DNA from: Erythrobacter sp. | GTDB taxonomy: Bacteria > Pseudomonadota > Alphaproteobacteria > Sphingomonadales > Sphingomonadaceae | DNA length: 64,000 nucleotides | NCBI GenBank assembly: GCA_044348875.1 | Contig: JBIKSA010000005.1 | Location: 112 to 64,111, forward strand | Reading direction: 5' to 3' | Shown: one piece after another, positions 11,968 through 57,888 of the stretch | Layout: each line of letters starts with the position of its first letter | How positions within the stretch are numbered: position 1 is the first letter of the stretch | Program-made: the position numbers and the translations under genes | Notes under the pieces: generated by a model | Database searches by the model: none | What the model saw: only the letters and a program-made list of their open reading frames with translations | Told to the model about the DNA's origin: nothing

Positions 11968-12050
11968 GCGAGGGCACCTGCGCGCCCCCGTCCTCGGTGC
12001 GGCTCCCTTCGCTTCGCTACGGGCGCACCTGCGGCGTCGTTCCAGCGTTA
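11968..12050. repeat. REP-like palindromic intergenic element
   Basis: GCACCTGCG occurs twice; CGTCCTCGGTGCG...CTTCGCTTCGCT...GGGCGCACCTGCGG hairpin between two facing terminators. Confidence 0.45.
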
Positions 12051-12073
12051 CTTCGCGGGGTTCGGGGGCCACG

Positions 12074-12106
12074 AAAAAGGCGGCCCGGTTGCCCGAGCCG
12101 CCCTTT
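12074..12106 (-). terminator. Terminator after acyl-CoA dehydrogenase
   Basis: GGCGGC...GCCGCC stem with A-run on + strand (U-run on -). Confidence 0.65.
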
Positions 12107-12160
12107 AATTGCAATAATCGCGCCGGAACGGTCGCGTTAGCGACCGCAAGGCTACCCCGC

Positions 12161-13324
12161 TTACATAGATCTTGCGATCAGCATCTTCATGATTTCGTTC
12201 GATCCACCGTAGATGCGGGCGATGCGGGTATCGCGATACATGCGGGCGATGGCGTAATCATTGATGTAGCCTGCGCCGCCATGGAATTGGAGGCACTTGT
12301 CGACCACTTCGCTTTGCAGCTCGGTCACCCAGTACTTCGCCATGCTCGCGGTCGACACGTCGAGCTTGCCTTCCAGCAGCTTTGCGATGCAGTCGTTCAC
12401 GAACACGCGGGCCGCCGTGCCGCGCGCTTTCAAGTCCGCCAGCACAAACTGGGTGTTCTGGAAATCCCAGATGGTCTTGCCGAAAGCCTTGCGGTTCTTG
12501 ACGTATTCGACCGTCACATCGAGTGCCTTTTCGATCCCGGCAATCGCATTCATCGCAATCACCAAGCGTTCCTGCGGCAGCTCGCCCATCAGCTGGTAGA
12601 ACCCGCGCCCCTCGACACCGCCCAGCAGATTGTCGGCCGGAATGAAGACATTGTCGAAGAACAGTTCCGAGGTGTCCTGCGCATCCAGCCCGATCTTGTC
12701 GAGCTTCTTGCCGCGCGCAAACCCTTCCGCGCCGTCGGTTTCCAGCAGCAGCAGCGAGATGCCCTTGGCGCCTTCGGCCGGATCGGTCTTGGCGACGACG
12801 ATGATGAAATCGGCGAGCTGTCCGTTCGAAATCCAGGTTTTCGACCCGTTCAGCCGGTAGCCGTTACCATCCTTCAGCGCGGTCGTCTTGATCGACTGTA
12901 GGTCAGAGCCCGCATCCGGCTCGCTCATCGCGATCGCGCTGACCAGGTCGCCAGCCACCAAACGCGGCAGGTACTTCTGCTTCTGCTCCTCGGTGCCGTG
13001 GCGCACGAGGTACGGCAGGATGATGGTGTTGTGGAGCGACGCGCCGAAGCCGTCGACGCCGTGTTCGCCCTGCTTGGAGATCACCACCATGTCATGCCGG
13101 AAGTCGCCGCCGTGGCCGCCATATTCGGTCGGCACCGACACGCCGAGCAAGCCCGCTGCGCCCGCTTCGCGCCAGAATTCGCGTTCGACCATGCCGTCCT
13201 CGCGCCATTTCTCGACCCGCTTTTGCGGCGCATGCTGGGCATAGAATTTGCCAACCGCGTCGGCGAAAATGGCAATTTCTTCTTCTTCCATGAAGGCCGG
13301 CTGCGGCACATCGATGACAGGCAT
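12161..13324 (-). CDS. Acyl-CoA dehydrogenase (long-chain-like)
   Basis: AIAMSEPDAGSDLQ, LNGSKTWISNG, RKAFGK, IYGGSNEIMK. Confidence 0.95.
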   Translation of the reverse strand: MPVIDVPQPAFMEEEEIAIFADAVGKFYAQHAPQKRVEKWREDGMVEREFWREAGAAGLLGVSVPTEYGGHGGDFRHDMVVISKQGEHGVDGFGASLHNTIILPYLVRHGTEEQKQKYLPRLVAGDLVSAIAMSEPDAGSDLQSIKTTALKDGNGYRLNGSKTWISNGQLADFIIVVAKTDPAEGAKGISLLLLETDGAEGFARGKKLDKIGLDAQDTSELFFDNVFIPADNLLGGVEGRGFYQLMGELPQERLVIAMNAIAGIEKALDVTVEYVKNRKAFGKTIWDFQNTQFVLADLKARGTAARVFVNDCIAKLLEGKLDVSTASMAKYWVTELQSEVVDKCLQFHGGAGYINDYAIARMYRDTRIARIYGGSNEIMKMLIARSM

Positions 13325-46658: not shown

Positions 46659-47591
46659 TCAGTAGATTTTCCCCACCAGCGGTAGCCCGCGCTCGGGCTC
46701 GGCGAATTCCTTGATGATCCGACCAACCCTTGAAAGCGCCAACTCGGCGCGGGCCTGCATGGTATCGACGGGGCCGCGGGCGCGGAAATAGCAGGCGAAG
46801 GTGATCGGCGGCTGGCCCTTCGGCCCTTCGGTAAAGCCGATGTCGATGAAGTTGCTTTCGCTGCCAACCAGCCCACTGGTGCCGGTCTTGTCGCCCGCCA
46901 CCCAACCTTCAGGCAGACCCGCCCGCACCCGGCGCAGGCCCGTTTCGGTGGCGATCATCCAGCTTTTTAGCTCGGCCCGCTCGGCCTCCGGCAGCACATC
47001 GCCATAGACAATCTTGGCCACAGTGCGTGCCATCGCTGCCGGCGTGCTCGTGTCGCGGAATTCGGTCGGCGGGACGATGTTCATTTCCGGCTCGTAACGA
47101 TCAACCCGGCTGACCGGATCGCCGATGGAGCGCCAGAAGGCGGTCAGCCCGGCCGGTCCGCCCAGCGCCCGCAGCAGGATATTGGCCGCCGGATTGTCGG
47201 ACGTCACCTGCGTCGCCCGCGCCAGTTCGCGCAAGGTCGCGCCGCTCGCCAGCCGTTCCCGCGTGAAGGGGGCGTATTCGAGCATATCGGCCTCGGTCCA
47301 CGTCACCCGCCGGTCGGCATCGATCAGGCCCGCCGCATGGCGTTGCAGCAGCAGCGCCGCGAGCGAGAATTTGAACGACGACGCATGGCCGAAGCGCCGG
47401 TCACGGTTGATCCCCACGGCCATGCCGGTGGCCGTGTTGTAGAGCTCAACGCCCAGCGTTCCGTCACCCACCGCTTCGATAATGCGCAGCTCTGCCGCCA
47501 GCCTTCCGATCGGGCTCTGGTCAGGCGGGATGCAGGCAGAAGCTCCCAAGGCCAGCGAGCCACCGATGAAAAACCGCCGATCAATGTTCAT
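46659..47591 (-). CDS. bla: Class A beta-lactamase-family serine hydrolase, Tat lipoprotein
   Basis: SSFK (SxxK), SDN, RYEPEMN (E166/N170), DKTG; RRFF and LGASAC. Confidence 0.9.
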   Translation of the reverse strand: MNIDRRFFIGGSLALGASACIPPDQSPIGRLAAELRIIEAVGDGTLGVELYNTATGMAVGINRDRRFGHASSFKFSLAALLLQRHAAGLIDADRRVTWTEADMLEYAPFTRERLASGATLRELARATQVTSDNPAANILLRALGGPAGLTAFWRSIGDPVSRVDRYEPEMNIVPPTEFRDTSTPAAMARTVAKIVYGDVLPEAERAELKSWMIATETGLRRVRAGLPEGWVAGDKTGTSGLVGSESNFIDIGFTEGPKGQPPITFACYFRARGPVDTMQARAELALSRVGRIIKEFAEPERGLPLVGKIY

Positions 47592-48523
47592 GAAAACTTG
47601 TCCGCCTTGCGTTTGCCGAACCGCATGTCGGCCTCTAGTCTGGCCCGCAATTGCGCATAGAATGCTTCGAGAAAAGCCCTTTCGTCGCCCGCGCCCGGCT
47701 CCCAGCCGATCTTGCGGCAGATCGCCTTATGCGTGGCGGCGAGAGCTTCCGCGGGGGAATCCCGCAGCACCCGCTCCAGCGTCTGCAATTCCTTCTCGCC
47801 ATAGACCGAAAGTTCCGCCTCACCAAAGGCATAGCGCACGCCGGTCACATTGCTCGCCCCAGCAGCGGCGCCTTGCACGGACAAGACGGAGGCAAGCTGT
47901 GCTTTGGGCCGTTCGACCACCCAGGTTCCGGCGACAATGTCGCCAGCACGCAAGGCATCGCGGTTGAAGAAGGGGAACAGCAGGAACAGCGCGAACCAAA
48001 TGGTCAAAATCGCGCTGAGAATGCCAATCTCCTGCCCCTGCTGCGCCATGATTGTTAGCGTAATCAGAGCCACAATCGGATAGAAAATTTCGATATCCCG
48101 GAGCAGGTTGCGGGCGATCACCGCTTCGGGGGTGAGCCGCGCGCCGCGCCGTGCGGCGATGCGGATGCCGACCATCCGCTTGCCCAGCGTCGCACCGCGC
48201 GGCCCCAGTTCCTGCACCAGAAAATACCCGTACCAGGTGCAAAACACGAACAGGGCCATGACAATGCCGAGGAATTCGAGCGCACCGCCCGACATTCCGG
48301 CAGGATCCAGCGCGGTGCCGTCCAGCAATCCGCCCGCCACCCACACCACCAGCAGTTGAAATATGACGAGGCTGAAGACGACAATCATCACGTCGATCAT
48401 CAGCGCGGCCGCGCGGGGTGCGCGCGCGGCAAGGACAAGCGGCAAGACCAGACCTTCGGGCGTGACTAGCGTCCGCGCGCGCTTGTCGGCGGGACGTGCA
48501 AGAGTGGTTTTGCGCGCGTTCAT
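47588..48523 (-). CDS. RDD family protein
   Basis: LVTPEG, RAAALMID, GATLGKRMVGIRI, RAGDIVAGTWVV. Confidence 0.92.
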   Translation of the reverse strand: MNARKTTLARPADKRARTLVTPEGLVLPLVLAARAPRAAALMIDVMIVVFSLVIFQLLVVWVAGGLLDGTALDPAGMSGGALEFLGIVMALFVFCTWYGYFLVQELGPRGATLGKRMVGIRIAARRGARLTPEAVIARNLLRDIEIFYPIVALITLTIMAQQGQEIGILSAILTIWFALFLLFPFFNRDALRAGDIVAGTWVVERPKAQLASVLSVQGAAAGASNVTGVRYAFGEAELSVYGEKELQTLERVLRDSPAEALAATHKAICRKIGWEPGAGDERAFLEAFYAQLRARLEADMRFGKRKADKFS

Positions 48524-49590
48524 CCCCCGTCCTCCAGCCCTTGCGGGGCAGGGCGATAGAGGCAGAAATAGGCGAGCCAGAAGGTCAGCATTGTCCCGCC
48601 GATCACAAAGCGGCTGCCCGTATCCTCAACCAATTGGCGCGGAAACGCTTCGAGCAGGGCTGCGACCACCATCATGATGACCACGCCAACCATCACCACT
48701 GCCGCGCGCCGTCCGGCAGCCGCGGCGGCATCCAGCACCGCTGCCGGTCCGGGAAAGGCCATCGCCCTCCCGATATGCAGGCCCGCCGCGCCCGACAGCA
48801 GAATGCCGAATAATTCGGTGGTGCCGTGAACGCTCAACCACGCGGCCAGCTCCACCACCAGACCCTGCCCGTCAAACAGCCACAGCATCGCGCCGAGCAA
48901 AGCCATGTTGTGCACCAGCAGCAACAGCGACGGGATGCCGAACGCAAAGCCTAGCGCGAAGGCAAGGATGCACACCGCGGAGTTGTTGCTGAACAGCTGC
49001 GCGGCAAACCCGGCAAGACCCGCCGCGCCTTCATCATGGGCGAGGCTTCGCAGCAATTGTTCGCGGCTGGCCCCCGGCACGCGCGCTTCGCCGATGCCCG
49101 CCGGGAACAGCCTGTAATACCACGCCTCGTCCTCAGCAACGAGCAGCCAGCCAACGATCGTCCCGGCCACCATCACAAACAGCGCGATGCATATATCCAG
49201 CCACAAGGCCCGCACAGCCCGGCTCCACCCGCCGAGGAAAAACCCGCGTAGCCAGCGCACAAACCCGTAGCGCGGGCCATAGACCTGAAACCACGCGCGC
49301 TGCACCAGCGCTTCAAGATAGGCGAGGGTGGCCGCGTCCAGCGACGTTTCCCTCGCCACCGACAGGCTGGATGCAGCGGTGCGATACAGCGCGGGGAGCG
49401 CGATCAGATCGTCATCAGCAATCCGCCGCAGGCCGCCGCGCTCCATGCGGGCGACAATCGCCTCAAGTCGGCGCCAATCGCCTTCCCGCTCAAGCCGGAA
49501 GCGGTCGGACCGCAGTGCTGCGCTTTCGATATCGGGCGGCGCGGCCACGGCCCCGCGCCCGAACCATGAGGAGATGACCGGCGCCTTCAC
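48520..49590 (-). CDS. Stage II sporulation protein M family membrane protein
   Basis: LYRTAASSLSVAR, FSNNSAV, HGTTEL, VAALLEAF; GTG start at 49590 overlapping the DUF58 stop (GTGA). Confidence 0.88.
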   Translation of the reverse strand: MKAPVISSWFGRGAVAAPPDIESAALRSDRFRLEREGDWRRLEAIVARMERGGLRRIADDDLIALPALYRTAASSLSVARETSLDAATLAYLEALVQRAWFQVYGPRYGFVRWLRGFFLGGWSRAVRALWLDICIALFVMVAGTIVGWLLVAEDEAWYYRLFPAGIGEARVPGASREQLLRSLAHDEGAAGLAGFAAQLFSNNSAVCILAFALGFAFGIPSLLLLVHNMALLGAMLWLFDGQGLVVELAAWLSVHGTTELFGILLSGAAGLHIGRAMAFPGPAAVLDAAAAAGRRAAVVMVGVVIMMVVAALLEAFPRQLVEDTGSRFVIGGTMLTFWLAYFCLYRPAPQGLEDGG

Positions 49591-50963
49591 CCTATCGCCT
49601 CGCTGCTTCGGATCGCCAGATAGCGGTCGATCAGGCGCGGGCCGATCATGTCCCACGGCGCTTCGACCACATCGATCCCCAGACGTCGCAGGCGGGTCAG
49701 CACCAGTTTGCGCTGCTGGGCGAGGCTGTCGGCCGTGACGGCGCGGGCAAGGGCCGCCATGTCGCCCGGCCGGACGGCGATCAGGTCTTCCACCTCGCTG
49801 TCGGCCATGGTGACAAACAGCACCAGATGCTTGCTCACCAGTCGGCCGAGGCTTTCGACCATCAGTTCTGCCGCTGTGGGATCGGTGAAATCGGAGAACA
49901 CCACCACCAGTGAACGGCGTTTCAGCTTTGCTGCCAGGGTGGCGAGCGCGAGGGTAAAGTTCGGTTCCACCGGCTCGTAATCCAGGCCTGCGGCGGCGCT
50001 TTGCAGGCGGTGGAAGGCGCGGGCATCGCCGATGAAAGGGGTCATGATCTGCGGCCGCCGGGCAAAGCCGAACAGCGCGACCTTGTCCCCGCCCTTTAGC
50101 GCGACATAGCCACAGGTCAGCGCGGCGGAGACCGCGCGGTCGATGCGCGGCAGGCCATCCACCGGCTCGCACATCGCCTGCCCGCAATCCAGGGCGAAGA
50201 CGATCTGGTTGTTGCGCTCGCTTTCGTTTTCGCGGGCGAACAGGCGGGTGTGGCGCGCGCTGGCCTTCCAGTCGATGCGGCGGCGGTCCATGCCGGGTTC
50301 GTATTCCGACAGAGCCTCGAACTGCGTGCCCTCGCCCCGGATGCGGCGGGCGATGAGGCCCAATTGCGCATTGCGCAGGAAGGTCTGCAAATCGGGAGAA
50401 CGCACGGGCGACAGATCGGGCCAGATGCGCACAGGCTTATTGAGCGGATAGTCGACCTGCCGCGCGCCAAGGCCCAGCGGCCCTACCCAGCGCATCCACG
50501 CACGCTCGACCGTGGCGGTGCCGCGCCGCGAGGGGGTGAGCGTCGTCTCGCCCTGCCAGTCTGGGCCATGCGGATCGGGGGCGAGCGCAAAGGTCACGCG
50601 GCCCTCTGGCGCAAGGCGCGAATCGCAGGCGAGCGCAGCCTCGACCTGCGAAGGCACCCGGCCCGCAAAACGCGCGGTGATCGCGAGCATGCTCGGCTGG
50701 CCGACCTCGATATCCTCGCTGGTGCGGATTTCCCAAGCCGCCAGCTTGCCCGTCGTGACCGCATCCAGCGCGATCAGCAGCAGCAGCGCCGCCCCCATCA
50801 GCGGCGCGGCAACCCATGCGCCGGGCGCTGCGGCGGCGATCACCACCGCGACCGGGGCAAGCGCCGCCGCGATCCATGCCGCACGCTCCGTCGGCGCGAC
50901 GATCAGCAGCGGCCGCAGTGGTCGCAGCAGCGTCTCGAGGACAAGGCGCAGGACGCGGATCAC
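49587..50963 (-). CDS. DUF58 domain protein (vWA-like)
   Basis: GEGTQFEALSEYEPGMDRRRIDWKASAR, ALDCGQAM, VVFSDF; GTG start at 50963 likely. Confidence 0.9.
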   Translation of the reverse strand: MIRVLRLVLETLLRPLRPLLIVAPTERAAWIAAALAPVAVVIAAAAPGAWVAAPLMGAALLLLIALDAVTTGKLAAWEIRTSEDIEVGQPSMLAITARFAGRVPSQVEAALACDSRLAPEGRVTFALAPDPHGPDWQGETTLTPSRRGTATVERAWMRWVGPLGLGARQVDYPLNKPVRIWPDLSPVRSPDLQTFLRNAQLGLIARRIRGEGTQFEALSEYEPGMDRRRIDWKASARHTRLFARENESERNNQIVFALDCGQAMCEPVDGLPRIDRAVSAALTCGYVALKGGDKVALFGFARRPQIMTPFIGDARAFHRLQSAAAGLDYEPVEPNFTLALATLAAKLKRRSLVVVFSDFTDPTAAELMVESLGRLVSKHLVLFVTMADSEVEDLIAVRPGDMAALARAVTADSLAQQRKLVLTRLRRLGIDVVEAPWDMIGPRLIDRYLAIRSSEAIG

Positions 50964-50964
50964 C

Positions 50965-51927
50965 TTATCGGGGTGCCGCGGTCGCTTCGACCAGTTCGGC
51001 CACCAGCGCTTCCATATCGCGCCCCTCGATCTCGGCAGCGGGCGACAGGGTGAGGCGGTGGCGCAGCACCGGGACGGCCAGCGCCTTGACGTCATCGGGG
51101 ATCACATAGTCGCGGCCTTCCAAAGCGGCGCGGGCGCGGGCGGCCCCAGCCAGCAGCACGGCGGCGCGCGGCGATGCGCCGACGGTCAGTTCGGGGTGGT
51201 CCCGCGTCGCACGGATCAGGCGCACGACATAGTGGGTGATCTCGTCCGCTACGGTGACCTGCGCCAGCGCGCTGGTGGCAGCGCTGATCCCGGCAGCGTT
51301 GGTAACCGCCAGCACGCCCAGATCGACCGGGCGCTGCGGCCCCGAACGCTGGCCGAAGGTGGCAACGATCCGCGCCTCTTCGTCCTCAGCCGGGTAAGGC
51401 ACCAGCAGCTTGAACAGGAAGCGGTCAAGCTGCGCTTCGGGCAGCGGATAGACGCCCTGATTTTCGATCGGATTCTGGGTGGCGACGACCATGAAGCGTT
51501 CCGGCAGCTGGTGCGTCTCCCCGTCCAGCGTGACGCGGCGTTCCTGCATCGCTTCGAGCAGCGCGGCCTGCGTCTTGGGCGGGGTGCGGTTGATTTCGTC
51601 CGCCAGCAGCAGGTCGCAGAAGATCGGCCCGCGCGTGAGCGTGAACTGGCTGGTCTGGAAGTTGAACAGGTTCGATCCCAGAATGTCGCCCGGCAGCAGA
51701 TCGGGGGTGAACTGGATGCGCCCGAAATCGAGGCCCAGCGCGGTGGCAAAGCTTTGCGCGAGGAAGGTCTTGGCTGTACCCGGCGGGCCTTCCAGCAGCA
51801 CGTGGCCTTCTGACAGCATTGCCACCAGCAGCATATCGACCATCGCCTCCTGCCCGACAATCGCCTTGGCGATTTCGGCGCGGATGGCGTCAGCCAGACT
51901 GCGGACGTCGTCGAGTGTCATGGTCAT
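50965..51927 (-). CDS. MoxR family AAA+ ATPase
   Basis: [53 protein letters not shown]. Confidence 0.96.
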
Positions 51928-51931
51928 CGGG

Positions 51932-53209
51932 TCATTGTCCCTGTTGCAATTTGGCGTTGAGATCATCGAGGCTTTGCGCCGCGGCGAGGATGTCGGCCGG
52001 GGTCCGGGCCGCGTCCATCCGCGCGGCGCGGTGGGTGAAGGGTTCTTCCATCGGCAGGCGGCGGGAAAGCGCAGCGTCGATGGCGGCCCAGTCAGGCCGG
52101 GTAAGGCCGAGCCGTTCGGCCAATCGGCGTGCCGACAGCGCGGTGTAGGGCACGCCGAGCAAGCCAAAGCGCTGGGCCCGCAGGATCAGTCCCGCGCCAT
52201 TGAGGATCAGCTGGTGCTTGCCAAACGCGATGTCCGGGCCGCTGGCAGCCGCAGGCGGGCCGAAACGCATGAACGCCCGCCAGCCGACGATCAGCAGCGC
52301 CGCCAGCAAGCTTAAAGTCGCGGCGAGGAACGGCGGGCGGAAGGCCAGCGTCAGCAGATTCTCCGACGCGCCAAAGCCATTGAGCGTCATGTCGAAGGTG
52401 ACCTCCCCGATATCGCCGCCGTAGGTCAGTTCGTCCACCAGCGCGACAGCCACCGCCGCGCGCGCGGGATCGGCAAGACCGAAATTATTGGCAAGGTCAG
52501 GCTCTGCCAGGAAGGCCACGGGATAGGCTTCCTCGTCCGGTTCCCCGTTGAGTTCCGGCGTTACAACAAAAGCGAGCACCCGCGCCGCGCCATCGGTGAC
52601 GAACGTGTCATGCGCCGACATCGGTGTTGCAAACAGCGTTGTGGGGGTCGGCAGACTGCCCTCCTTGCCCATGCCTTGCCAGACGCCGGGCACCCGTGCC
52701 TTGCCTATGTCGGGATCGGCAGATGCGTGAGCAAAGCCGAAGGGCGACGGCAACCTCTCTGCCCAATCGCTCGTCGTGACATTGGCCAGCGTAACCCAGC
52801 CACGTTTGAACTTCTCGCGCGCCTTGGGCGGCAGCGTGGGCGAAGGTGGGGTGGCTTGCCATTTGGGCATGATAACCAAGGTGGGCCCGCGATAACGACG
52901 CTCGGCCAGTATCGTGCCGATCTCTTCCGCGTCGCCAACGGCTGGCGGGGTCAGCACCAGCAGCCCCTCCGTCTCCAACCCCTTGCGGTTGCGCGAACGA
53001 TCCACGGTGTATCCCTGCGCTTCGACCAGCCGCACCAGCCCTGCATAGCCGTTGAGCCCGCGGCTGGACGCATGGGCCTGAACGCTGCCCTGTTCGCCGC
53101 CGACGTCCTCACCCGCGCCGATGAGGTAGAGGATCGTAAGAAACAGCGCGAAGCCGCCCGCGACCAGCGCGAAGGCACCGCGCCGCGAGAATGCTGCGCC
53201 GCCGCTCAT
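51932..53209 (-). CDS. DUF4350 domain membrane protein
   Basis: N-terminal [36 protein letters not shown] + [11 protein letters not shown]. Confidence 0.8.
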
Positions 53210-53904
53210 GCCGTCCCTCTCCGCCCATCGATTCGGGCCAGCGCGAATTCGGCATAGGCGGCGCGCGCTGCTTCCCAATCCGCGCGGTCGAGTGCGCGCA
53301 GCGCGAATAGCGATCGCTCCACCCGTTCGGCGATCACGCCAAATGCGCCGCGCGCTGCATCGGGCAGGGCAGGCAGCGCGGCAAGTTCACGCGCGGTGCT
53401 GGAAGGCTCCACCCAATCGGGCCGCGCGGCGGCGATCTGGCCGACGCTGCGCTGGAGGAGAAGGCGCGTTGCCTCGTCAAAGCGGCCCTCTGCCGCCAAC
53501 CGGTCGGCATCGTCCAGCAGCGCAAGGGTTGATGCTGCATCAGGGCGCCACGTCCCTGCCTCCCCATCGCCTGCCGTGTCGCTCCGGCGCCCCAGCACCG
53601 GCGCGATCAGGCGCACCAGCAGCAGGCCCGCAAACAGCACCGCCGCGCCCAGCAAGACCCATTGCAGCCACCACCATGACGCCCCCAGCGCCTTGCCCAG
53701 CGGGGCGAGCCATTCGGCAAGGACTACGAAGAGATCGTTGAGCAATCGTTCGAACCAGCCGGGGACGCGCGGCGTCATCTCCGGAACGGCAACGGGGGCG
53801 AACTGAATGTCGCCATCGGCCCGCAGGCTTTCCCATCCGGCGGGAGCCGCTCCGCCTGAGTCATTTGATGGACTGGAAGGGGGTGTTGCGGCCGCTGCGG
53901 TCAT
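53206..53904 (-). CDS. DUF4129-like membrane protein
   Basis: DGDIQF, TM helix, ADRLAAEGRFDEATRLLL, PSSTARE, VERSLFA. Confidence 0.75.
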   Translation of the reverse strand: MTAAAATPPSSPSNDSGGAAPAGWESLRADGDIQFAPVAVPEMTPRVPGWFERLLNDLFVVLAEWLAPLGKALGASWWWLQWVLLGAAVLFAGLLLVRLIAPVLGRRSDTAGDGEAGTWRPDAASTLALLDDADRLAAEGRFDEATRLLLQRSVGQIAAARPDWVEPSSTARELAALPALPDAARGAFGVIAERVERSLFALRALDRADWEAARAAYAEFALARIDGRRGTA

Positions 53905-57814: not shown

Positions 57815-57888
57815 TGCCCCGTCCTCTAATGGTAAGAGAGCGGACTCTGACTCCGTCAATCAAGGTTCGAATCCTTGCGGGGCATCCA
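57815..57888 (+). tRNA. tRNA-Gln (CTG)
   Basis: 74 nt; acceptor TGCCCCG/CGGGGCA, anticodon arm GCGGA-CTCTGAC-TCCGT, GGTTCGAATCC, encoded CCA. Confidence 0.95.

Follow-up and report, generated by a model that had tools for sequence, protein, structure and literature searches.

Seven tightly packed genes, A to G, occupy positions 46659-53904 on the minus strand of a 64,000-nucleotide stretch of Erythrobacter sp. DNA (contig JBIKSA010000005.1 of assembly GCA_044348875.1; the whole stretch is called the window hereafter). This locus is very probably the Erythrobacter/Porphyrobacter copy of a vertically inherited, widespread six-gene operon, to which a class A beta-lactamase gene has been appended at the 3' end in the Erythrobacteraceae. 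The functional unit comprises the six genes A-F and not all seven: a single operon links proteins of the DUF4129, DUF4350, MoxR, DUF58, SpoIIM and RDD families, in that order, and the beta-lactamase encoded by gene G is a lineage-specific passenger at its 3' end, not part of the conserved system. The window locus is an ordinary orthologue of an operon that has been partly noted in the literature and is annotated in reference genomes. As to what the six proteins do, we tentatively propose that the MoxR ATPase and its DUF58 partner act on the SpoIIM and RDD proteins in the inner membrane.

Conservation and distribution of the operon

Our survey rests on 80 Erythrobacteraceae loci obtained by a profile search of genome contigs and, for distant contexts, on contigs encoding SpoIIM relatives together with a plasmid collection. 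The order A-F is kept in all 56 Erythrobacteraceae loci with full flanks. The neighbouring genes, namely ppx, rlmE, a cytochrome c gene and the prephenate dehydratase gene pheA upstream and an asparaginase gene downstream, keep their synteny in about 70 of 77 loci. The operon is a core-genome locus and not an island. Across the family, MoxR is the most conserved product, with 80-94% identity, and identity is lowest for the products of genes A (50-76%) and B (41-77%). The closest matches of the E and B proteins are Erythrobacter and Porphyrobacter proteins, and the DNA of the operon is detected in lake and other freshwater metagenomes.

The operon extends well beyond this family. A profile search with diverse SpoIIM relatives returned matches named Planctomycetota, Pelagibius, Kiloniellaceae, Anaeromyxobacter and Burkholderiales. 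The same A-F order is found in an Anaeromyxobacter metagenome-assembled genome (MAG), in Kiloniella laminariae and in three further contigs, as well as in a Planctomycetota MAG whose contig ends after the SpoIIM gene. It is also present on plasmids of Rhizobium leguminosarum and Paracoccus aminovorans, with 'hypothetical protein' as the annotation of its first two genes. The co-conserved, translationally coupled unit around MoxR that a sequence-only reading of this DNA had proposed is thus borne out, with the A-F order kept across several phyla. We also found a four-gene form, MoxR-DUF58-SpoIIM-RDD (L092:1246-5482), which does not have the DUF4129 and DUF4350 genes and has an opposite-strand universal stress protein gene upstream instead. 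Judging from its gene content, this form suggests that the operon has a four-gene minimal core.

One locus of the collection comes from a contig titled 'Synechococcus sp. UW140' MAG (L008, CALRJK020000006.1). Its operon proteins are 60-93% identical to those of Erythrobacter/Porphyrobacter, with the same layout, and going by these sequences the contig is probably mis-binned.

Gene models and junctions

The gene models are given in Table 1. They match the gene order, the domain calls, the four 4-bp overlaps and the gaps of 1 and 4 bp that had been read from the sequence. Genes A/B, E/F and F/G overlap in an ATGA and genes D/E in a GTGA. A gap of 4 bp separates B from C, and the DUF58 gene starts 1 bp past the moxR stop, which is the C/D gap. 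The overlaps recur in the related loci: the A/B junction is -4 in 73 of 73 loci, E/F in 77 of 80, D/E in 71 of 83 and B/C in 53 of approximately 77, counts that lean towards overlaps inasmuch as the chosen start codons favoured nearness to the upstream stop. The +4 gap between B and C in the window is therefore the minority state. At 51928-51935 of the window, an out-of-frame ATGA is present at the stop of B. Together with the 4-bp overlap in most relatives, this sequence suggests that a small indel moved the moxR start. The 4-bp overlaps indicate translational coupling. They are not proof of stoichiometric production, and the stoichiometric co-translation that the sequence-only reading drew from them does not follow.

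Table 1. Genes of the operon and the appended beta-lactamase gene (window coordinates).
Gene	Position	Strand	Length (aa)	Product
A	53206..53904	-	232	Divergent DUF4129 membrane protein
B	51932..53209	-	425	DUF4350 protein
C	50965..51927	-	320	MoxR-family AAA+ ATPase, soluble
D	49587..50963	-	458	DUF58 protein; GTG start
E	48520..49590	-	356	DUF8413 + SpoIIM-family polytopic membrane protein; GTG start
F	47588..48523	-	311	RDD-family membrane protein
G	46659..47591	-	310	Intact class A beta-lactamase

Three antisense open reading frames (ORFs) of 267-433 amino acids overlap the moxR and DUF58 genes on the plus strand (50512-51813, 50250-51053 and 51479-52315). We do not regard them as genes: they have no family support and are typical of DNA with 65-68% G+C. 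An Rfam scan of the whole window returned two tRNA genes only (1412-1484 and 57815-57885), with no riboswitch or small RNA near the operon.

The ATPase and its vWA partner

By its domains and motifs, the product of gene C is a MoxR-family AAA+ ATPase. It matches AAA_3 with 209.5 bits (cut-off 27) and AAA_lid_2 with 85.4 bits (cut-off 22.7). It also matches bpMoxR (PF20030), with 51.9 bits, far below the AAA_3 score. Both Walker motifs are intact. Walker A (GPPGTAKT) and Walker B (LLLADE) align with GVPGLAKT and ILADE of the MoxR protein 2r44, which is the nearest solved structure (E = 1.9e-69); the sequence of C also matches RavA, though remotely (E = 5e-7). As the aligned motif of 2r44 illustrates, a Walker A of the form GxPGxAKT is the norm of the MoxR family and not a variant, as had been thought from the window sequence.

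Gene D encodes a DUF58 protein (PF01882, 91.6 bits, cut-off 23.4) with weak matches to VWA_2 and VWA_CoxE. No other gene for a von Willebrand factor A (vWA) domain protein is present in the operon, so that DUF58 is the only vWA-type partner, as noted earlier from the sequence. The protein is predicted to have an N-terminal transmembrane hairpin at approximately residues 25-77, followed by a vWA-like domain. As the soluble domains follow this hairpin, they should be cytoplasmic. The vWA-like domain has a conserved SDF/TDF motif and a degenerate metal-ion-dependent adhesion site (MIDAS): in place of the canonical DxSxS, the window protein has DCGQA and the distant orthologues have DTGHL or DTGQL. 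The degeneracy and the SDF motif had both been spotted in the window protein, and the former turns out to be kept in all seven orthologues aligned, from three phyla. The site has the consensus D-[TC]-G-[HQ]-[LA]-M, in which D259, G261 and M264 do not vary and both MIDAS serines are replaced in seven of seven sequences, which makes it a conserved trait of this DUF58 subfamily. Because the site has neither serine, binding of a partner by DUF58 is predicted to be independent of metal ions. A comparison of the D sequence with the PDB gave no solved homologue.

The membrane proteins

The products of A, B, D, E and F are all predicted to have hydrophobic membrane segments, which makes five membrane proteins, one more than the four integral membrane partners counted previously.

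The E protein matches SpoIIM (PF01944) with 105 bits (cut-off 26.9), and PF28475/DUF8413 is found in the precomputed annotations of its homologues. Its AlphaFold2 model (mean predicted local distance difference test score, pLDDT, of 88.7) comprises an N-terminal helical domain, which corresponds to DUF8413, and six long helices. The polar residues N203, H255, G256, E259 and E314 are invariant, and R318 is nearly so; the conserved residues thus include intramembrane His and Glu. Given an N-in topology, H255, E259, E314 and R318 would be on the periplasmic side, a placement that follows from the order of the helices and not from coordinates. A Foldseek search of the PDB with the E model returned nothing significant (best E = 0.87). 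No SpoIID or SpoIIP family gene is present at the window locus or at the related loci examined.

The F protein matches RDD (PF06271) with 54.8 bits (cut-off 24.1). Residues R37, D44, GKR (114-116), N187 and D195 are invariant across distant orthologues, and for R37, D44 and D195 the comparison covers eight orthologues. The protein ends in a conserved soluble domain of approximately 100 residues with the motif YG..ELQ.LE..LR...FL..FY. Among the 150 best SpoIIM family representatives, three are fusions of SpoIIM with RDD and one is a fusion of DUF58 with SpoIIM. These fusions fit the predicted topologies and argue for a physical association of the proteins.

For gene A, the window protein itself falls below the Pfam threshold of DUF4129 (PF13559; 16.2 bits, cut-off 24.8, E = 0.011). 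Its DUF4129 identity is nevertheless supported at the sequence level through its orthologues, 25 of 26 of which match PF13559 at E <= 0.05 (best E = 1.5e-7). A single transmembrane segment is predicted at approximately residues 77-107, followed by a conserved C-terminal helical, DUF4129-like domain, and the orthologues share the motif LA..G...A..LL....T.RE....E..F. Distant orthologues have a signal-like segment at the N-terminus, which suggests an N-out/C-in topology, and the C-terminal domain is probably cytoplasmic. According to its Pfam description, DUF4129 also forms the C-terminus of transglutaminase membrane proteins whose genes accompany MoxR-DUF58, which would make it a candidate for docking the ATPase pair.

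The B protein similarly scores below the cut-off of DUF4350 (PF14258; 21.9 bits, cut-off 30.4). The domain is found in the precomputed annotations of nearly all of its 120 closest homologues and also in the distant syntenic orthologues. In the AlphaFold2 model (pLDDT 77), transmembrane segments at residues 9-31 and 292-322 enclose an alpha/beta GIFT-like (GldG/IFT52-type) domain at approximately residues 52-275, and a helical tail follows the second segment. The GIFT domain, of about 220 residues, is predicted to be periplasmic, and the conserved tail of about 100 residues to be cytoplasmic. A Foldseek search with this model found the N-terminal domain of IFT52 (5fmr, E = 2e-4) and trimerisation domains of the GH42 type. 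The model thus has the flavodoxin-like GIFT fold between two membrane anchors, and the DUF4350 identity of B is supported by its orthologues and by its predicted fold. This fold match agrees with the similarity of DUF4350 to GldG reported previously (PMC5898192).

Genes next to the operon

Genes for membrane proteins of the GPDPase_memb/DUF7847/UPF0259 group are found right after the RDD gene in several distant lineages (L085:9893-10663, L086:9964-13472, L087:10169-10939, L091:9973-13349 and L093:2820-3632). Two long-read contigs have four or five tandem genes after RDD, two to four of which have Pfam matches to GPDPase_memb/DUF7847/UPF0259. This group may represent a further associated family. 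On the Rhizobium and Paracoccus plasmids, a DUF805 membrane protein gene precedes the cluster at a distance of 3-4 bp (L089:2254-2700 and L090:2275-2715) and is probably co-transcribed with it. In two loci of a single lineage, the cluster is just upstream of mraZ, rsmH, ftsI and murE, with which the division/cell-wall (dcw) cluster begins (L088:12063-13812 and L093:4197-9936). An Amidase_2 gene is just upstream of the cluster in two loci, L085 and L088.

A proposed mechanism

The operon anatomy, the domain identities, the co-conservation of the genes, the degenerate MIDAS and the predicted topologies together lend themselves to a mechanistic proposal. MoxR ATPases and their vWA partners mature or remodel dedicated target complexes. 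By analogy, this ATPase should have a dedicated target, reached through its vWA partner, and the co-encoded membrane proteins are the only candidates that are conserved along with the pair. The four-gene variant without A and B points more specifically to SpoIIM-RDD as the obligate partner or target. RavA-ViaA is an example of a MoxR-vWA pair with a dedicated target (PMC3893208).

We propose that the five membrane proteins would assemble into one inner-membrane complex, to the cytoplasmic face of which a soluble MoxR hexamer would be recruited by DUF58 acting as a membrane-anchored vWA adaptor. Recruitment of MoxR would probably be aided by two further cytoplasmic parts, the DUF4129 domain of A and the helical tail at the end of B. 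ATP hydrolysis might then remodel, assemble or gate the SpoIIM-RDD transmembrane module, in which the conserved polar residues are predicted to lie towards the periplasmic leaflet. The GIFT domain of DUF4350, as the single large extracytoplasmic element, could bind an envelope partner or ligand. The output would most probably be an envelope function, such as the handling of a lipid-linked or peptidoglycan-related molecule or the positioning of periplasmic enzymes. Defence and the regulation of a particular enzyme are both unlikely outputs. To this mechanism as a whole, in which a membrane-tethered MoxR-DUF58 pair acts on SpoIIM-RDD with an envelope output, we assign a probability of roughly 0.35. 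That the proteins physically assemble, in which direction they act and that the target is in the envelope are all inferred, whereas the features listed at the head of this section are shown.

An envelope role is weakly suggested by five observations. SpoIIM scaffolds peptidoglycan hydrolases in Bacillus (PMC5898192), and in mycobacteria co-purification links Rv3694c and Rv3695 to Rv0954, a membrane protein associated with the divisome (PMC8093794). The other three are the mraZ/dcw neighbours in two loci, the upstream Amidase_2 gene in two loci and the repeated recruitment of beta-lactamase genes in one family.

Several points weigh against the proposed mechanism. The observations that hint at an envelope role are circumstantial, and the topologies are only predicted. 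As the E protein has no analogue in the PDB, its mechanism cannot be modelled on that of a transporter or enzyme of known structure. Each of the fusion proteins is a singleton at 90% clustering. We therefore downgraded them as strong Rosetta-stone evidence, since such singletons could be frameshift artefacts at overlapping junctions. A promoter and terminator scan of the operon yielded sites no more numerous than in shuffled controls. For co-transcription, the sequencing runs that contain the locus sequence are DNA metagenomes only (lakes, subsurface), and RNA runs share at most 7% of the sampled words. Lastly, in a table of PMC8191103, the whole block BB28_RS01830-RS01900 of Mycobacterium chelonae, which includes glpK, glpF, padR and the MoxR cluster, is down by 6-9 log2 units in a double lysogen. 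We set this table aside as proof of co-regulation: a contiguous block that drops alike is more likely to reflect a deletion than regulation.

The ATP-driven inner-membrane remodelling, quality-control or export machine put forward in the sequence-only reading is a plausible hypothesis. A bolder form of the proposal is that SpoIIM-RDD, with DUF4350 and DUF4129, constitutes a new kind of inner-membrane machine that transports or remodels a lipid-linked or peptidoglycan-related molecule and is powered or gated by MoxR through a metal-independent vWA adaptor. This is rather unlikely. Such a machine would be shared by Alphaproteobacteria, Myxococcota, Planctomycetota and mycobacteria, and it would explain the role of SpoIIM homologues in non-sporulating bacteria.

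Other functions for the six-gene unit

A dedicated secretion or export apparatus, in which the GldG-like DUF4350 protein would be the periplasmic component and SpoIIM-RDD the conduit, appears unlikely, even though most of the components are membrane proteins and B has the predicted GldG/IFT52-type fold. It is the function predicted in a published study for an archaeal DUF4350-MoxR-vWA neighbourhood (PMC5898192), and an exported enzyme, the beta-lactamase with its twin-arginine signal, is co-encoded in the Erythrobacteraceae. However, this enzyme carries an export signal of its own and most lineages do not have it, and the bacterial six-gene clusters examined have no conserved secreted substrate, S-layer protein or Ig-like protein. 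Nor is there an outer-membrane component, and the E protein is unlike any solved transporter or secretion component.

It is quite improbable that the operon encodes a MoxR-vWA system for sensing across the membrane or for conflict (defence), comparable to ternary systems or Esr, with DUF4350 as the sensor, MoxR-DUF58 as the transducer and SpoIIM and RDD as the membrane effectors. A precedent exists in the actinobacterial Esr pathway, of which MoxR-vWA pairs are signalling modules (PMC13622651). The single large periplasmic domain could be a sensor, and in one locus an FHA-cyclase gene is divergent from the cluster. The bpMoxR match of the ATPase might also be taken as a sign of such a function, but it is far weaker than the match to AAA_3. 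Moreover, no kinase, FHA, beta-propeller, toxin or nuclease effector is encoded within the operon, and no PADLOC model matches any of the partners beyond generic AAA+ matches. All six partners are conserved rather than variable, and the operon has a fixed core-genome position across the family.

Whichever function it has, the operon brings together several families in need of one. MoxR proteins are among the most widespread AAA+ proteins, and their targets are mostly still to be found. SpoIIM and RDD are large families for which we know of no role outside sporulation. The unit is also present in genetically tractable organisms, namely Rhizobium leguminosarum and, going by annotations, mycobacteria such as M. 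tuberculosis, so that one good phenotype or structure would annotate six families at once. The locus is therefore a well-defined and worthwhile experimental target.

The beta-lactamase as a passenger

Gene G encodes a class A beta-lactamase that matches NF033103 with 234 bits (cut-off 200) and has the motifs SSFK (SxxK), SDN, EPEMN (ExxxN) and KTG. Its signal is of the twin-arginine type (DRRFFIGG...ASAC), as read from the sequence. In the N-terminus, MNIDRRFFIGGSLALGASAC, this signal is followed by a putative AxA cleavage site or a lipobox-like Cys.

We regard G as a passenger because bla is confined to the Erythrobacteraceae and is missing from some of the loci there. Relative to the RDD gene, bla is adjacent in 49 of the 77 Erythrobacteraceae loci, spaced in 13 and absent from 15; the asparaginase gene, which is convergent, directly follows RDD in several of the bla-less loci. 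At related loci from other orders or phyla no bla gene was found, though A-F persist there. The seven-gene system proposed from the sequence is thus reduced to six genes. In 12 of the 13 loci with a spaced bla, the gap is approximately 460-485 bp (L041, where it spans 11985-12458, L043, L050, L052-L054, L069-L072, L074 and L079), and it is 120 bp in the remaining locus. The gap holds an ORF of approximately 160 codons resembling a GNAT acetyltransferase in the three loci inspected (L041, L043 and L050). From these arrangements, accessory genes seem to come and go at the 3' end of the operon.

This distribution largely refutes the notion that A-F serve to export, regulate or assist the beta-lactamase as a seven-gene resistance unit, which we consider highly improbable. 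In favour of such a unit, RDD and bla overlap by 4 bp in the window and in 48 related loci, and MoxR1 of M. tuberculosis reportedly assists a substrate of the twin-arginine translocation (Tat) pathway. Against it stand the 15 loci without bla, the long RDD-bla gaps, with GNAT-like ORFs in the three inspected, and the absence of bla from all the loci in other orders and phyla. Furthermore, since it has its own export signal, the enzyme would presumably need nothing from A-F. G is best annotated as a separate, lineage-specific chromosomal gene of the resistance type.

That unrelated genes were packed here by chance and that their adjacency is functionally meaningless is refuted by the same order in Alphaproteobacteria, Myxococcota, Planctomycetota and plasmids with unrelated flanks, by the conserved start/stop overlaps and by the fusion of neighbouring genes in some proteins.

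Comparison with known systems

Our literature search found no functional study of this operon type, and the earlier statement that the system has no known function stands in so far as no published function was found. The arrangement itself is not new in all respects: in the literature searched, it is partly described and widely annotated, without an assigned function. In the study of Makarova, Galperin and Koonin (2015), arCOG01314/DUF4350, an AAA+ ATPase of COG0714 and a vWA protein are predicted to form a secretion or membrane-remodelling complex, and genes for a vWA protein and a COG0714 ATPase are described as conserved neighbours of those for bacterial SpoIIM homologues (PMC5898192). The window operon shares with these neighbourhoods the triad of DUF4350, MoxR and vWA, the association with SpoIIM, the prediction of a membrane or extracytoplasmic role and the GldG-like fold of DUF4350. 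In contrast, the archaeal clusters have S-layer or Ig-like proteins, none of which is encoded in the window operon, and the complete bacterial set of six genes, which includes DUF4129 and RDD, is not described in that paper.

In mycobacteria, Rv3691 (DUF4350), Rv3692 (MoxR, 'MoxR2'), Rv3693 (DUF58), Rv3694c (SpoIIM) and Rv3695 (RDD) are neighbours, according to a table in PMC8191103. The mycobacterial literature on Rv3692-Rv3695 that we found consists of lists only and gives no function. Compared by annotation only, Rv3689/Rv3691-Rv3695 and the corresponding M. abscessus genes MAB_0386c-MAB_0392c represent the same families side by side, but without a beta-lactamase. The 'c' suffixes in the locus tags indicate that these genes are not all co-directional, and hence that they do not form one collinear operon.

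With the SpoIID-SpoIIM-SpoIIP engulfment complex of Bacillus subtilis, the window operon has the SpoIIM domain of E in common. However, the window organism is non-sporulating and the locus has no SpoIID or SpoIIP, and E has an additional N-terminal DUF8413 domain and is associated with RDD and an AAA+ ATPase.

In Bat-type operons (Bacteroides aerotolerance; Rhizobium RL3499-RL3502; Borrelia BB0170-BB0176), for which envelope-integrity phenotypes have been reported, MoxR is likewise directly followed by DUF58 and then by inner-membrane partners. The BatA/BatB vWA and TPR proteins are, however, absent from A, B, E, F and G, and DUF4129, DUF4350, SpoIIM and RDD are present instead. For Borrelia, the Bat-type context is that given in PMC5700661.

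Clusters of MoxR, DUF58 and a transglutaminase, namely those of the Pseudomonas TgpA type, the bifidobacterial PFNA clusters and the actinobacterial Esr clusters, also have the MoxR and DUF58/vWA pair. DUF4129 accompanies MoxR-DUF58 both in the transglutaminase clusters and in operons of the window type. Unlike these clusters, the window operon has no transglutaminase core, kinase, FHA domain or FN3/beta-propeller sensor, and its DUF4129 is a stand-alone protein with a single transmembrane segment.

Finally, RavA-ViaA, NorQ/NorD, CbbQ/CbbO and CoxD/CoxE have in common with the window operon an AAA+ MoxR ATPase, a vWA cofactor and a dedicated target complex (for RavA-ViaA, PMC3893208). Here, by contrast, the ATPase belongs to another MoxR subfamily, with 2r44 as its nearest structure, its vWA partner is membrane-anchored with a non-canonical MIDAS, and the presumed targets are membrane proteins encoded in the same operon.

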